IMG/VR virus record: IMGVR_UViG_3300050343_000218
Source: a virus
Strand: one strand, 5' to 3'
DNA: 64,000 bases
The position numbers and the translations under genes are program-made. Numbering within the stretch: the stretch's first letter is position 1; each line of letters starts with the position of its first letter. A model generated the notes under the pieces. The model worked only from the letters and a program-made list of their open reading frames with translations, was not told the DNA's origin and ran no database searches. Below are positions 50,703-57,213 of this stretch, one piece after another.

Positions 50703-52045
50703 TTTTTGTTCATAGAATCCTTAACGAGTGTCATAGAAGTGAAGCATTCGCGAGGTGTCATACTATATCTATGCGCCAATCTAAAGACTAGATATGCGCC
50801 ACTCCTACGAAGGTCTTCATCGTCAGCATCCTTAGCGTGATCAGGTTTAGAAGACTGGATGTGCAATTTAATTTTTTGTCCAGCTCTAAGTTCTGAATTG
50901 CCAGGTACGACAACGTTAGTTACATTCATTGCCATAGTAGCACGACGTGCGTTGTATTGGCAAATTGTATACGGACCCCAGTCAGGGTACTCTGTTTCTA
51001 CATCACTACCATCTCTTCCAACAGTATCTCCTGCAGCTTCTTCTTCATCAAAGAACGCTTCATTAGTTGTGTCAATTTTAAATGTTTTAACTGCTTGAGT
51101 ATTATTAGATGTAGAAGTTTGATAGTCCTCCAACCACTGCAACATCCAGATAGGAAATCTGTCTTGTGTACCTATGTGTCCCCATTGTTTCCAATGTTCT
51201 TTTAGGTTCCACCTTTCTTCTTTAAATTCTTGGGTGTCCGTGTTGGTTACTGCCATTATAGCAGAGAAGACTCCTTTGTCTGCCATTGCTTTGAGATCAC
51301 CATCTCTTTGCACATTATAGTTATTGATAATCAAATGAGCTGGAATTTGATTGGTGTTTGCAGGTGACTGATAGTATTCCCAATGGGGTTTGACACCATC
51401 AAACGCATCGTCTCCTGTAGACAACAGATAATCAATGGAAGCAAAGTTATATCCATCTCTCGTTCCCCAAAGAAAATATCCACAAGTATTAGCTTGCTCA
51501 CCTGCTTTAGGAATCGATTGAGTGCATACTCTCCTCGCCATCTTATCAAGCGAGATACCTTCGCCAGCGATGTGTAGCTTATTAAATGGTGCGGAACCAC
51601 GTAATTGCACCCTACTACTCATCGATGCATCTTGAAATGCTGTGGCAATTACAATATCTCCTGTTCCCTTATAGGTATTCATTGCCTTATAGGTGGAGAA
51701 AGACTTACTATCTTTTTTGATCAGGTTAATTGTAGTAAGCTTACCTTTAAAGTCAACGAAAGGAGTGGAATTTGATCCAACAACAAACTCATACTCAACT
51801 TCTTTACCAGAGGTTTGATCTGTCTCTAGAGTGATGACAAACTCTTCTCCTCCTGCCAAAGGTAAGTCAGTTGATCCTAGATCATTAAGGACTGCCACTG
51901 CAGTAGGACAGATCCTTTCTAAGTCTTCGTAGTAAGTGAACGATGCTAGGTTAGGGGTAAGATTGATAATTGCACCCGAGGTCATTGTTAATTTAATACC
52001 AATTAACTTCCAGCCAATTTGAGCATCAGAAGAAGGTGCAGCCAT
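50696..52045 (-). CDS. baseplate hub protein (gp27/gpD-like)
   Basis: 449 aa; YFLWGTRDGYNFASID and C-terminal VPGNSELRAGQKI..SGAYLV..LAHRY; lies between the TMP-like gene and gp5. Confidence 0.65.
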   Translation of the reverse strand: MAAPSSDAQIGWKLIGIKLTMTSGAIINLTPNLASFTYYEDLERICPTAVAVLNDLGSTDLPLAGGEEFVITLETDQTSGKEVEYEFVVGSNSTPFVDFKGKLTTINLIKKDSKSFSTYKAMNTYKGTGDIVIATAFQDASMSSRVQLRGSAPFNKLHIAGEGISLDKMARRVCTQSIPKAGEQANTCGYFLWGTRDGYNFASIDYLLSTGDDAFDGVKPHWEYYQSPANTNQIPAHLIINNYNVQRDGDLKAMADKGVFSAIMAVTNTDTQEFKEERWNLKEHWKQWGHIGTQDRFPIWMLQWLEDYQTSTSNNTQAVKTFKIDTTNEAFFDEEEAAGDTVGRDGSDVETEYPDWGPYTICQYNARRATMAMNVTNVVVPGNSELRAGQKIKLHIQSSKPDHAKDADDEDLRRSGAYLVFRLAHRYSMTPRECFTSMTLVKDSMNKNC

Positions 52046-55000
52046 TAAATATCTCCTTGGAATACGTGACCACCATCTCTAACAGGAGAGGTTGTCGGGA
52101 ACATAGCAACATCACCAGATCCTTGCATACCAGGATCTTGTGGAGACATAGTACCTCCACCAGCATTTGAATTTGCAGCTGACATAAGCAACTGCGGAAT
52201 ACTTGCCAGCGGTGCGAGAGCACCAGCAATACTATCTGCTAATCCACTTTCCATACCTGACTTCTGTAGAGCGTCTGAACGATTAGCAATGTTGGAAGAC
52301 ATACTGCTAGCAGTACTTGCCATCCCCCGTAGCGCACTAGTGATAGGTGATACTGACAGAGCAGCTGCTGATGCTTCTCGTCCTGGAGTACTACCATCAG
52401 CAGAGTAAGAAGAAGAACTACTACTATCCAGCGAAGGAGTACCAGGACCATCCTTAGTGAAAGGAGCGTACTTATTATATTTCGATAGAGGTTCAAACAA
52501 ACTTCGACCAGAGCGACCTACGTCACGTTCTTTAGTTGCTGTTTCCCAATGAAGGTGTGGACCATAGGAGTTACCAGTGTTACCAACCTCACCAACTTTT
52601 GTTCCTGCTGCATATGTTTTACCAACTTTCAATTTACTCTGGGACTTCATATGACCGTACATATGAGTAATACCATCTTCTGTAGTAAAGTAAATCGAAT
52701 TGCCATACCCAGCTCCGTTTGCGGTAGCACGATTGTCCACAATCTTAGCGCCTAAAGGCAGGAACATTGGAGTTCCTGATCTAGCAGCGATATCTGTACC
52801 TTGATGCATCTTCCACAATCCTGACCCTGGTGCCGTTCGCATACCACGCTTAGAAGTGACAGTAATATTAGGTCTGTTACCAGTAGCTCCACCCATACCA
52901 GGTAGTTTAATAAACTCACTACTACTAGTAGGACTAGCAGGACCACCTTGTCCACGCAGTTTCCTCATCATTTCTTCTTGCTGCTTTCTTCTATTGTATA
53001 GTTTTCCAGCAAGAGTATCGTTACTTACATTATCCAAGTCACCTGTGGTTGCTTTCTGTGCATCACCACTGAACCAAGACATTGGATTCAACATATTAAA
53101 TCCACCACCTTTACCACGAACAGAATTCTGTACAGGACCACCTTCTCCTTCATCACTTGTACCATCAACAAAGTTGTTTATCTTACCGAGAACATCACCT
53201 GACATCGCCCCCTCCATACCAGAAACCATACCACGAAGAGCATCACCACCCAACCAGGAAGGAACATTGTCAATTAGACCTTTAATAAATCCCATACCAG
53301 CTTGAACAACTGTGCTGATGGTTTTGACAATGTTAGTGACTAGATCAACAACACTTCTGATTGAACTGATAACAAGATTAAGTACTGGTGCTAAGGTCTT
53401 CAGCAGAACTTTGGCAATAATACCAATAATTCTACCAATGTTTTGAAGAGCTGTGACAAATCCACCACTTCCATCTTTTCCGTTACCCTTAATACCAAAA
53501 GCACCCGCGACAGTATCCAATGCACCTGTGATAGAACCAGCAAGTCCTTTAAAGTTATCAATCACAGGACCAAAAGTACCACCCCAGTCGAATGACTTGA
53601 ATGTGTTGGCGAATCCTTCACCCAAGAACTTACCAACGTTCTCACCTAACCAAGCACCAGCTGCTGCACCCAGAGCAGTACCGATAGGACCGAGAGCACT
53701 ACCCAGGATACCACCCACCACAGTACCGACACCAGCACCCACACCAGCACCAGCAGATCTACCAACGATCTTTGCTTTGTCTTTCTTCAGACTACCATCA
53801 GCAAGACCAGCTTTAATTTGTTCCTCATCCATCTGAGGATTCTCTGCCCTCAGTCTCTCCATTTCCTCTGTGTTTGCATCCATAGCGCCAAACCCAGCAG
53901 AGATTAGGGAACCGAGAATAGGAATTCTCTTCGCCAAACTACCAGCACCTTTTGCAACACTAGCAATACCTTTCGCATTCTTTATAGTAGATACTGCTTG
54001 TGGTGTTGCTGTTCTCGCTGCCCTAATTGTGTCACCAAGTTTCGCAGCAACACCAGGAGTAGCACGAGCACCAGCTGCACCAAGTCTAGCAGCACCCTGA
54101 ACACCACGTGATCCAAGTTTAGATACTTGTGTAGCAGCTTTACCTAAGTCAAAGTTCTTAAGAGCAGTCTTAGCAGTGGTTCCAAAACCTTTTACTGCTG
54201 TAGTTAAATTTTTAAACTGTCCAGGCAATGCTTTTATTACATTACCAAAACTAGTAATAGTTTTTACCTTAAGGTTCTTAAGGTTCTTAACGATATCATC
54301 AAAGGTACCAAGGATTGCAGCTTGAGGACCAGCAGCTTTCGAGACTGCCATAAACTGCTTGACTCCCTGCGGAGTTGCTGCAGAGACTGCTTGTCTAGTA
54401 GCGCTAGCTGCATTACGAGCACTTGTAACAGTACCCTGAATACCTGTTCTAATACCTCTACCAGCACGGAAGACACCACCCGCTTCCATCCCAACATCAC
54501 CAACACCACGAGCAATGTTCGGGAACGGACGACCTGCAGTGCGAAGAACATCGACATCACGAGCACCAGTAAGTCCTTGCCCAAAGAGTTTAGCTTGTGT
54601 AGGAAGATTTTTTAATCCAGCTACACGTGTAGCTACACCTCTCTGTACTCCCTCTACACCTCTCTGTGCTCCCTGTCTCGCACCACTTACAAAACCAGCA
54701 GCTCTTTCTCTAGTAGTTTTTACAGCAGCGACAAGAGAATCTTTTAAAGTCTTAGGAGTAATAGTAGTTGGGAGAGTACTGCTACCTGCACGTGCTCCCT
54801 GTCTGATAGCAATGTCATCTAATTTAGATGCAAGCTTGCTAGTATCTGACCTTCCAACCGCTTCAGCAATTGCTTGGGTTCCTCTAACAGGAAGCATCGC
54901 AGTTGACTTAGCAGCTCCAGCTATTCCCTTGCCGATTGCTCCACGAACTGCACCACCAGTCTTTGCATACTTACCAGACTTCGCAGCATCGACTCCCATC

Positions 55001-55524
55001 GATATCTGACGAAGACCAAACATCGAGAACCCATCTATGGGGGTCAAGATATCCTGAAGTCTAGTTAAAAACCTTGCTGTTTTTTCCCTAAAGTTACTTA
55101 GTTTTTCTCTAAGATCTATCTCAAATTCTTCTAAATTATCTGCCCACCCATCAAGAGTATCAGCAATACCTGCAGCTCCATCAGAAAACTTTGATGCTGC
55201 AGCAGTAAGAGCACCAATACCAAGTGCTATTGCACCAAGACCTAGAGCTTTCTTTAAATCTACCTTAGATTTTTTCTTTGTCTTTCCTCCCTTATCCTTT
55301 CCACCTACACCACCTATATTATACTTCTCAATTGCATTCTCTTGCGCAGTAAACTTGCTAGCAGAGATAGACTTTCTCGACAAAGAAATTTGCTGTCGAA
55401 GAAGATTGTTAGTCGTTAGCTGAGAGTTTACAACATCAGACAGGATACTATTAGTAATCTTCTGCGCGTTCAATTGCGCAGAAGAAAGAGTTGTCAGAAC
55501 TTTAATGCTAGACTCTAGTGACAT
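52045..55524 (-). CDS. tape-measure-like/gp29-like protein with C-terminal M23 peptidase
   Basis: Long G/A-rich helical body; HQGTD (HxxxD), GYGN, YGHM, GPHLHWE (HxH). Confidence 0.75.
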   Translation of the reverse strand: MSLESSIKVLTTLSSAQLNAQKITNSILSDVVNSQLTTNNLLRQQISLSRKSISASKFTAQENAIEKYNIGGVGGKDKGGKTKKKSKVDLKKALGLGAIALGIGALTAAASKFSDGAAGIADTLDGWADNLEEFEIDLREKLSNFREKTARFLTRLQDILTPIDGFSMFGLRQISMGVDAAKSGKYAKTGGAVRGAIGKGIAGAAKSTAMLPVRGTQAIAEAVGRSDTSKLASKLDDIAIRQGARAGSSTLPTTITPKTLKDSLVAAVKTTRERAAGFVSGARQGAQRGVEGVQRGVATRVAGLKNLPTQAKLFGQGLTGARDVDVLRTAGRPFPNIARGVGDVGMEAGGVFRAGRGIRTGIQGTVTSARNAASATRQAVSAATPQGVKQFMAVSKAAGPQAAILGTFDDIVKNLKNLKVKTITSFGNVIKALPGQFKNLTTAVKGFGTTAKTALKNFDLGKAATQVSKLGSRGVQGAARLGAAGARATPGVAAKLGDTIRAARTATPQAVSTIKNAKGIASVAKGAGSLAKRIPILGSLISAGFGAMDANTEEMERLRAENPQMDEEQIKAGLADGSLKKDKAKIVGRSAGAGVGAGVGTVVGGILGSALGPIGTALGAAAGAWLGENVGKFLGEGFANTFKSFDWGGTFGPVIDNFKGLAGSITGALDTVAGAFGIKGNGKDGSGGFVTALQNIGRIIGIIAKVLLKTLAPVLNLVISSIRSVVDLVTNIVKTISTVVQAGMGFIKGLIDNVPSWLGGDALRGMVSGMEGAMSGDVLGKINNFVDGTSDEGEGGPVQNSVRGKGGGFNMLNPMSWFSGDAQKATTGDLDNVSNDTLAGKLYNRRKQQEEMMRKLRGQGGPASPTSSSEFIKLPGMGGATGNRPNITVTSKRGMRTAPGSGLWKMHQGTDIAARSGTPMFLPLGAKIVDNRATANGAGYGNSIYFTTEDGITHMYGHMKSQSKLKVGKTYAAGTKVGEVGNTGNSYGPHLHWETATKERDVGRSGRSLFEPLSKYNKYAPFTKDGPGTPSLDSSSSSSYSADGSTPGREASAAALSVSPITSALRGMASTASSMSSNIANRSDALQKSGMESGLADSIAGALAPLASIPQLLMSAANSNAGGGTMSPQDPGMQGSGDVAMFPTTSPVRDGGHVFQGDI

Positions 55525-55694
55525 TATCCTGTTTGCTGTTTAAGTTTTTCGTCTTCAAGATAAGCGATAAGTAATGCAACATATACTTCTCTTTCCCACG
55601 GCATCATATTTTCAATCTCAGTAAGACTATACTTATGATGCTGCATTAAAGCAAAGTTTGTCCTAAAATAATTCTCTAAGGAATTATAGGACAT
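55524..55694 (-). CDS. gp51: gp51-like baseplate hub assembly protein (not in ORF track)
   Basis: MSYNSLENYFRTNFALMQHHKYSLTEIENMMPWEREVYVALLIAYLEDEKLKQQTG*. Confidence 0.85.
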   Translation of the reverse strand: MSYNSLENYFRTNFALMQHHKYSLTEIENMMPWEREVYVALLIAYLEDEKLKQQTG

Positions 55695-55696
55695 CA

Positions 55697-56410
55697 CTAC
55701 CCGAAAAAAGATGCCAAACCCTCAAGTGTATACTCACAATCCACATTCGTATTAGGATTAGTTACGGTGAATGTGTGAGATAGCTTAGGCATATTCACAA
55801 AGAACGTTTGCATAGATGCAAACTGAGATGATGTAAGACTATCGATGAAAGCAATCATCTCTTTCCTGCTAGAATTAGCAGACTCATATACTTCATCACC
55901 ATCAATAATCTGATCGATACAATCAGCAATAAGTTCAAACACTTCATCAGGTTTAGTTTCAACATCACCAAAATTATTTTTGATGAACTGATCCAAAGAA
56001 GGGTACTTCATTTTGAGAGCAATGTTCTCAGTCAATTCGATAGTATCGGTACTACCTTCTGGTTTAATAACCTCTACATCTTCCAAGCTAATAAGAGCAT
56101 CAACCTCAGTCTCATTGTCATCCGTACAGATAACTTTGAGTTCTAGTTCTTCACCCACTGACTTGGCACGAATCTTCAGAAACAAATACTCAAGATCAAA
56201 CATCGCAAGATTCTTAATAACCAATCTACTTGTGATGCAATTAGTTAGTAGTGTTACAACTGCATTCTGAATCTGTTGTGTGTCTTCCGATTCTAAAGCT
56301 AAGAGAAGAGTTTTTTCTTCCTTAACCAAGAAGGGACGATACTTCACTGTCTGTCCCGTAGAAGGGAGAGTAGTAGAGTACGAAGGCACTTCAATTTTTG
56401 GTAAAGGCAT
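55697..56410 (-). CDS. gp26: baseplate hub assembly protein gp26
   Basis: LPSTGQTVKYRPFLVKEEK..DLEYLFLKIRAKSVGE..MKYPS..FF..MPKL..EGLASFF. Confidence 0.9.
   Translation of the reverse strand: MPLPKIEVPSYSTTLPSTGQTVKYRPFLVKEEKTLLLALESEDTQQIQNAVVTLLTNCITSRLVIKNLAMFDLEYLFLKIRAKSVGEELELKVICTDDNETEVDALISLEDVEVIKPEGSTDTIELTENIALKMKYPSLDQFIKNNFGDVETKPDEVFELIADCIDQIIDGDEVYESANSSRKEMIAFIDSLTSSQFASMQTFFVNMPKLSHTFTVTNPNTNVDCEYTLEGLASFFG
55703..55709 (-). other. candidate -1 slippery heptamer T TTT TTC
   Basis: In frame 0 of gp26, one codon before the stop; the -1 frame reads F-R-V-V-M into gp51. Confidence 0.55.
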
Positions 56411-56442: not shown

Positions 56443-57213
56443 TCATTCAAAAGCGTTCTTTAAATTCTTAGAGAACTTTTTAGTACTGTCATCAATACCT
56501 CTCAAAGCTTTGCGTAGTTTCTTTGGAAGAGGATACTTATCAAGTTTAGACATAGACTTGAAATTCTGAAGAGCATCTTCATACTGAATCTCAAACTTTT
56601 CATAGTACATATTAACAGTACAGGTAACCAATGTAGTAGCACCTGCATCTAGAGGAACAGCATCAATAGAATATGGATATGCTTTCTGAAACCAGTACCT
56701 CATCGACTTAGATTGAGATCGATTGACAGGTCCAGGTTCAAACTTATCAATCAGAACTGACATCTGATACTCATCAGGATATCTAACTCTAACATATCTA
56801 TTTCTATCTCTATCAGGACTGTTAGTCCATCCTTCCATCATATCAATTTCATCACCACCATTATCAAACTCCTGGAAAATTTTATCAAACCAAGCGTGGA
56901 AAACTTTGTAAGCTGTCATATTAGCATCACAGATGAAGGACAGTGACAAATCATTGTACATCTTCATCGTAGGATACTTCATACTATGCCCAGTATAGTA
57001 TCCATTTACTTGTCCAGTAGCTGCCTGCACACTAGGAAGGGAAACCGAGTTGCAAAGAAGCTCCATCGATTCTCTCGTGGCATTACTCACATCTGGCAGT
57101 CCCTGAAGATCCAGTTGCCATATAGCAGGAATAGTGCATCTAAATTGATTAGACTTTGCAACTCCACCACCACGATTAAGTTGTTTAGCTAGATCTGAGT
57201 AGAGATTCGCCAT
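56443..57213 (-). CDS. tail tube initiator (gp54/gp19 fold)
   Basis: GGVAKSNQF..LLCNSVSLPS..KYP..YNDLSLSF..AYPYSI..L..TV.M.YE. Confidence 0.8.
   Translation of the reverse strand: MANLYSDLAKQLNRGGGVAKSNQFRCTIPAIWQLDLQGLPDVSNATRESMELLCNSVSLPSVQAATGQVNGYYTGHSMKYPTMKMYNDLSLSFICDANMTAYKVFHAWFDKIFQEFDNGGDEIDMMEGWTNSPDRDRNRYVRVRYPDEYQMSVLIDKFEPGPVNRSQSKSMRYWFQKAYPYSIDAVPLDAGATTLVTCTVNMYYEKFEIQYEDALQNFKSMSKLDKYPLPKKLRKALRGIDDSTKKFSKNLKNAFE

Follow-up and report, generated by a model that had tools for sequence, protein, structure and literature searches.

The question raised by this locus is whether two tail genes of a T4-like cyanophage, gp26 and 'gp51', are a single gene whose product is extended by a programmed -1 frameshift. 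The locus lies in a 64,000-nt stretch of DNA (the window) from an uncultured T4-like cyanophage, IMG/VR record IMGVR_UViG_3300050343_000218. A preliminary description of the sequence had proposed such a frameshift, forming a unit like lambda G/GT upstream of the tape measure gene, and every comparative test that we ran supports the proposal. We put at roughly 0.85 the probability that a recoded 295-aa fusion is made by ribosomal -1 slippage on TTTTTTC, alongside a 237-aa form. This estimate comes from sequence comparison and draws on the invariance of the heptamer, gp51 open reading frames (ORFs) that lack a start codon, the colinear alignment of T4 gp51 with the fusion, the correlation of the heptamer with gene copy number, and a fold resembling that of tail assembly chaperones (TACs). 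The features at the junction are:

55697-56410, minus strand: gp26, the putative short chaperone form (TAC-N), 237 aa in the zero frame, with TAG at 55697-55699; phrog_150
55703-55709, minus strand: slippery heptamer T TTT TTC (X XXY YYZ), seen in the sequence and kept in relatives
55524-55697, minus strand: the 'gp51' ORF of databases, 57 codons; phrog_634, E 8e-28
55524-55703, minus strand: -1 frame extension, C-terminal module of the putative long form (TAC-NC), 59 codons plus TAA at 55524-55526

A slippery heptamer at the gp26-gp51 junction

The 3' end of gp26 reads GCA TCT TTT TTC GGG TAG, placing the zero-frame stop one codon beyond the heptamer. In the zero frame TTT TTC follows the T that closes TCT, as the X XXY YYZ register requires. 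Following a -1 slip, reading would continue as CGG GTA GTG ATG..., a frame that is open as far as the TAA at 55524-55526, to give a conceptual fusion of 236 + 59 = 295 aa. In conceptual translation, the unshifted C-terminus is ...EGLASFFG, while the shifted junction is ...EGLASFFR followed by VVMSYNSLENYFR; the gp51 ORF of the window, if started at Met, would open MSYNSLENYFR. The position of the heptamer and the length of the fusion given in the preliminary description were therefore both reproduced from the sequence and its translation. The junction peptide that it proposed for detection needs correction, as the tryptic peptide starts not at C but at LSHTF..., after the Lys of MPK.

TTTTTTC occurs 10 times in the window, against an expectation of 12.7. 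A single heptamer is thus within chance, and the significance of this one derives only from comparison with relatives. We compared 80 IMG/VR loci (50-66% protein identity) with P-SSM2 and the window, 82 loci in all, representing 78 unique contexts. An alignment of these junctions had been suggested as a check in the preliminary description, and it bore out the proposal: the heptamer is present and in register in 82/82 loci, the -1 frame is open and no stop intervenes between heptamer and extension in any of the loci compared. In 77 of the 78 unique contexts, the zero-frame stop lies one codon after the heptamer, and the T run consists of exactly six Ts closed by C in all 78.

At the codon level T TTT TTC is invariant, while the residue before it varies. 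The Phe-Phe pair is encoded by TTT TTC in 78/78 contexts, although elsewhere in these genes TTT and TTC occur in a ratio of 670:246 (73:27). The codon 5' of the heptamer is TCT (37), AGT (30), AAT (8), GGT (2) or GCT (1), and so specifies four amino acids (Ser, Asn, Gly and Ala) and draws on two unrelated Ser codon families; its third base is nevertheless T in every context, compared with 42% T at third positions generally. Over the 60 codons upstream, pairwise identity at third positions is only 47%, with 0/60 columns reaching 99%. A megablast search of 6 kb against 50,697 phage records returned a sole common stretch, 55593-55730, which spans the site (84% over 138 nt); beyond this junction stretch, the same search found no cultured relative.

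Conservation of the extension does not depend on the presence of a start codon. Upstream of the heptamer the -1 frame contains no start codon in any of the loci, and in most of them it is open there for just 4-8 codons. After the slip, ATG, GTG and TTG are all absent from the first 4 codons in 33/78 loci and from the first 9 codons in 9/78, where the earliest start is at codon 14-19, codon 19 being a conserved internal Met. From residue 1 onwards the extension keeps to the pattern R-[IVL]-x-[ML]-x-[HYQ]-x-x-L-E-x-Y-[FY], and the first 18 residues are conserved even in loci without a start.

Two further candidate elements flank the heptamer:

55719-55723, minus strand: Shine-Dalgarno (SD)-like GAGGG, candidate 5' stimulator, 9 nt upstream of the heptamer
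55655-55698, minus strand: predicted RNA hairpin, candidate 3' stimulator, with its main stem at 55659-55693 and a 9-nt spacer from the heptamer

The spacing of the SD-like element resembles that in the dnaX cassette. Its Glu codon is GAG in 62/78 loci, compared with 31% GAG elsewhere in the gene; of the 15 loci with GAA, 13 have the rare codon GGG next, which preserves AGGG. On the 3' side, the 50 nt starting 3 nt past the heptamer have a mean predicted folding energy of -10.7 kcal/mol over the 78 loci, compared with -6.2 kcal/mol for windows tiled through the same genes, and in two thirds of loci they fall in the lowest folding-energy decile of their own gene. Against dinucleotide shuffles, the mean z is -2.1 after the site and -0.15 to -0.86 at four control positions. 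The SD-like element, the adjacent stop and the 3' hairpin probably help the slip.

We also examined a candidate for a single hairpin shared by all loci, taken from the 'VHMD' subclade (columns 18-22 with 27-31), and rejected it, as 59% of cells were paired compared with 58% in shuffles. Because this hairpin is unsupported across all sequences, the 3' structures appear to be lineage-specific.

Relation to T4 genes 26 and 51

In T4, gp26 (208 aa) and gp51 (249 aa) are paralogues, both of which match PF12322 and phrog_150, but only gp51 matches phrog_634 (residues 147-246). Using BLASTP and hhalign, we found that the 57-aa ORF of the window aligns only to the C-terminal tail of T4 gp51, residues 210-244, and the -1 extension matches phrog_150 positions 240-276. 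The two T4 proteins were then aligned with conceptual fusions from the window, P-SSM2, Mosig, KVP40, phiN3 and RSP15. T4 gp26 ends 3 residues past the homologous Phe-Phe, whereas T4 gp51 runs on in frame, colinear with the -1 extensions. This colinearity suggests that T4 gp51 corresponds to the frameshift product and T4 gp26 to the unshifted one. The families are the same (PF12322, phrog_150 and phrog_634), as is the relation of long form to short form, a helical tail of about 45-60 aa; the difference is that T4 has two divergently transcribed paralogues and no slip site, where this phage has one gene with a -1 extension.

Outside the cyanophage set, the heptamer occurs in seven cultured phages of other genera. 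T TTT TTC followed by a -1 extension is found in KVP40, Mosig, ACG-2014d and AsFcp_1, as it is in P-SSM2, and T TTT TTT followed by a -1 extension in phiN3, RSP15 and VmeM-32. The seven complete genomes searched among the phages with the heptamer (P-SSM2, Mosig, phiN3, KVP40, VmeM-32, AsFcp_1 and RSP15) carry one PF12322 copy each, while T4, JSE and Aeromonas phage 25 carry two, and IME08, Acinetobacter fHyAci03 and Klebsiella Jiaodavirus have an annotated divergent gene 51. These two-gene phages were taken from GenBank; an IMG/VR search with T4 gp26 gave only 7 near-identical loci. The heptamer is absent in 6/6 two-gene phages, in which the -1 frame is closed by stops and gene 25 follows. At the homologous site their gene 26 reads GAG TTC TTT (T4), GAA TTC TTT, GAA TTT GTT, AGT TTC CTT or an unrelated sequence, and the TTC TTT of T4 is in effect a natural counterpart of the synonymous 'mutant' envisaged in the preliminary description.

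In a maximum-likelihood tree, a branch with support 99/95 separated 13 single-copy genes from the sequences of the two-gene phages, which formed two groups, gp26 (89/83) and gp51 (100/99). This topology fits a single duplication, accompanied by loss of the slip site, as the origin of genes 26 and 51; because the root of the tree is not known, we infer the direction of the change at the slip site. The contrast between one gene with a slip site and two genes without one amounts to a natural experiment, which supports the view that selection maintains the ratio of short to long form and not the frameshift itself.

Chaperone-like fold, proposed mechanism and alternatives

The identity of gp26 as a tail assembly chaperone is suggested by family, fold and gene position. 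It matches PF12322 (T4_baseplate) with E 9e-70 over profile positions 2-218 of 219. An AlphaFold2 model of the protein (predicted local distance difference test score, pLDDT, 90) has counterparts in BFVD among models from many myoviruses that are labelled 'baseplate hub (assembly chaperone)'. A PDB sequence search gave no match at E<=1, and Foldseek of the model against the PDB none at E<=0.001, but the Foldseek hit of top probability was the HK97 tail assembly chaperone 2OB9, at 0.8 (E 0.7). In an exhaustive VIA search with residues 1-90, the best match was 3KLU (YqbN; Z 7.1, root-mean-square deviation (rmsd) 3.8, 85 aligned), followed by 2OB9 (Z 6.9, rmsd 3.7, 84 of 104 aligned), 3FGX (Z 6.3) and 5IR0 (4.7), with unrelated chains starting at 3.7. 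The top VIA matches agree with one another and with the gene order; YqbN comes from a Bacillus prophage, in which its gene sits between those for the tube and the tape measure. We therefore assign the TAC fold to the modelled N-domain of gp26 with moderate confidence. The -1 extension is predicted to form a small three-helix module (pLDDT 79). A gp51 motif had been likened in the preliminary description to those of P2 E', a resemblance that gained no support: at E<=10 the extension has no Pfam match to P2 gpE' or lambda gpT, and nothing else save a chance-level match to Stealth_CR2.

On the basis of these observations, we propose that gp26 is the tail assembly chaperone of this phage. Most ribosomes would stop at the TAG and release the 237-aa short form, while a minority would slip back one base when decoding UUU UUC on U UUU UUC. 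These would go on to read CGG GUA GUG AUG..., yielding the 295-aa long form, whose last 59 residues are the 'gp51' of databases. The slip would be helped by the SD-like GAGGG 9 nt upstream, the zero-frame stop one codon downstream and the 3' hairpin. By analogy with lambda G/GT, from which these roles are carried over, the N-domain common to both forms would coat the tape measure protein, whose gene comes next, and the tube or hub would be recruited by the helical module that the long form has at its C-terminus. In T4 and its close relatives, which would have lost the slip site, the paralogous genes 26 and 51 would encode the two proteins separately.

Several observations weigh against this proposal or parts of it. 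The structural matches to TACs have moderate scores, with all Z values below 8. The hairpin of the window, at -16.1 kcal/mol over 82 nt, has a z of -1.46 and is unremarkable when considered alone. RNAalifold found no consensus pairs in 59 gap-free junctions, that is, no structure common to all loci, and the predicted 3' hairpin is absent in one subclade (L006, L035, L036, L048, L058 and L070; free energies of 0 to -6), in which slipping is possibly stimulated by the SD-like element and the adjacent stop. Start codons also bear on the matter: GTG-ATG overlaps the gp26 stop in the window (TAGTGATG), and a start codon lies within 4 codons of the site in 45/78 loci. Finally, the run is homopolymeric, so that U6 could support slippage by RNA polymerase and lead to the same protein (..SFFR..). 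As a separate observation, the extension of the subclade without a hairpin begins R-I-[SA]-L-[FS]-H-E and also has no start codon within 9 codons.

The start codons admit the explanation that gp51 is a separate 57-aa protein, made by termination-reinitiation at the GTG or ATG overlapping the gp26 stop, with the T run merely encoding Phe-Phe. The GenBank records that we examined, one from 2025 included, do annotate two genes, and the overlap makes separate initiation possible in this phage, perhaps as an additional route. As the sole source of gp51, we consider it very improbable. It leaves unexplained the loci without a nearby start, among them those with none before the internal Met, in which the first 18 residues are still conserved, and the invariance of T TTT TTC at the codon level while the preceding residue varies. 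T4 gp51 is moreover a covalent fusion of the same two modules, and the heptamer is missing exactly where a separate full-length gene 51 exists. The annotation itself is unsteady, the ORF being mis-started in Mosig and unannotated in ACG-2014d. That heptamer and open -1 frame are functionless products of chance or hitch-hiking is an idea to which we give next to no weight; one TTTTTTC is expected in AT-rich DNA, but the conservation data refute chance for practical purposes.

Transcriptional slippage is the main residual rival to slippage by the ribosome. Here the polymerase would add one U on the T6 run, and a minority of mRNAs would encode the fusion in frame. The T7 runs of phiN3, RSP15 and VmeM-32 are compatible with this. 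For the polymerase to slip efficiently, however, a run of some 8-9 or more is usually required, and the run of six Ts and a C that is held throughout the cyanophage contexts falls short of that length. An SD-like element at dnaX-like spacing and an excess of 3' RNA structure are, in addition, features directed at the ribosome. The mechanism other than frameshifting in T4-like phages is taken in PMC10885494 to mean two separate genes. We judge this rival improbable, if somewhat less so than independent initiation of gp51, and retain ribosomal slippage as the favoured mechanism.

Known systems, annotation and neighbouring genes

In lambda, the gpG/gpGT pair is encoded at the same position, between tube and tape measure genes, and likewise has an X XXY YYZ site near the end of the upstream ORF and a minor long form that shares the N-terminus. 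The two systems differ in that no sequence similarity is detectable, the lambda heptamer is G GGA AAG compared with U UUU UUC here, and the N-domain is larger here, its 237 aa including extra domains beyond the TAC-like first 90 residues. P2 gpE/gpE+E', which slips on a T6G site, is also a chaperone pair of a myovirus, encoded immediately ahead of the tape measure gene and produced by -1 slippage on a T6N run; the extension described here differs in having no Pfam match to the P2 E family, even at the permissive threshold given above. Xu, Hendrix and Duda (Mol Cell 16:11) reportedly described in 2004 a conserved -1 frameshift of tail assembly chaperone genes. The layout of the putative signals is like that of E. 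coli dnaX, in which the heptamer is likewise homopolymeric, with an SD-like element about 10 nt upstream of it and a hairpin on its 3' side, and a stop is soon reached; the elements at our site are proposed from conservation only. The dnaX gene is unrelated, and its shifted product is the shorter one.

The preliminary description knew of no report of this mechanism in T4-like phages, a view that the literature does not sustain. Papers citing the work point to Vladimirov, Gautam and Davidson (Virology 2022;566:9-15, PMID 34826709), who, as summarized there, identified the TAC genes of T4-like phages (TAC-N and TAC-NC, that is, gp26 and gp51). According to the statements that cite it, some T4-like phages do without frameshifting and carry a short gene together with a longer fusion gene (PMC10885494), and poly-T slip sites in the TAC-N genes of T4-like phages are known (PMC12846349). 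Judging by these summaries, the principle is already published and, very probably, so is the cyanophage site itself, although in the open literature on gp26/gp51 frameshifting we found no paper describing that site. It is unlikely that the 2022 paper lacks Kyanoviridae or the architecture of the signals, in which case a dnaX-like three-part cassette and a single-loss rule would be new. The cassette would then be an arrangement conserved across T4-like phages, in which U UUU UUC has an SD-like AGGG 9-10 nt before it, a stop one codon after it and 3' hairpins that are lineage-specific. The phylogenetic rule would be a single loss of the slip site, coinciding with the duplication that gave rise to genes 26 and 51. 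We regard the locus as a well-supported new example, valuable mainly for annotation, and not as a new principle.

The review PMC3004832 counts T4 gp26 and gp51 among the hub assembly chaperones; gp51 is described there as 'essential, of unknown function' and is said not to be part of the particle. The present reading would explain the T4 'hub assembly catalyst' gp51 as a protein that most T4-like phages make by frameshifting, as the long form of their tail assembly chaperone. Hundreds of cyanophage records would then be in error on gp51, either treating it as a 57-aa gene of its own, misplacing its start or omitting it. None of the GenBank records that we examined annotates the -1 slip; gp51 starts at the ATG where one is present, starts too late (Mosig) or is unannotated (ACG-2014d). 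A simple annotation rule would be to look for a PF12322 gene ending in T TTT TTY together with a -1 ORF that matches phrog_634. In Pelagibacter phage Mosig (L087 1480-1690), the zero frame continues for 8 codons past the heptamer, and the ORF that is labelled 'hub assembly catalyst' has its start placed about 15 codons late, losing conserved residues. In MT385367.1 (Acinetobacter phage Abraxas), the gp26 homologue is labelled 'tape measure protein assembly chaperone', so the chaperone reading has reached some annotators.

The neighbouring tail genes are:

56443-57213, minus strand: tail-tube-fold gene, 256 aa; PF23849 Phage_TTP_2 E 7e-36, PF06841 gp19 (weak) E 1.5e-6, phrog_45 tail tube
52045-55524, minus strand: tape-measure-like gene, 1159 aa; tape-measure phrogs
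minus strand: phrog_350 tail protein, from a PHROGs match

The tube, gp26, 'gp51' and tape-measure-like genes all lie on the minus strand, and Pfam and PHROGs matches establish the order given in the preliminary description, with the putative chaperone unit (55524-56410) between the tail tube gene and the tape-measure-like gene, as in G/GT-type systems. The ATG of the tape-measure-like gene overlaps the TAA of the -1 ORF (TAATG), so that termination of the long form and initiation of the tape measure protein would share 1 nt. The tape-measure-like protein has a C-terminal M23 peptidase domain at residues 905-1001 (PF01551 E 8e-18). The window contains one gp26-like copy. On the plus strand, the genes that diverge from these are homologues of gp4, gp2, gp48 and gp53, so that the locus is syntenic with T4-like cyanomyoviruses, P-SSM2 for example.

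Two minor observations concern these neighbours. A 693-aa ORF at 59213-61294 matches the gp53-type baseplate wedge family, with the match confined to its first 141 residues, and PHROGs gave no family match for the remaining ~550 residues. The tube-fold gene at 56443-57213 is a second tube paralogue, which is annotated as a duplicated gp19 in KVP40 and as 'tail tube initiator' in Mosig.

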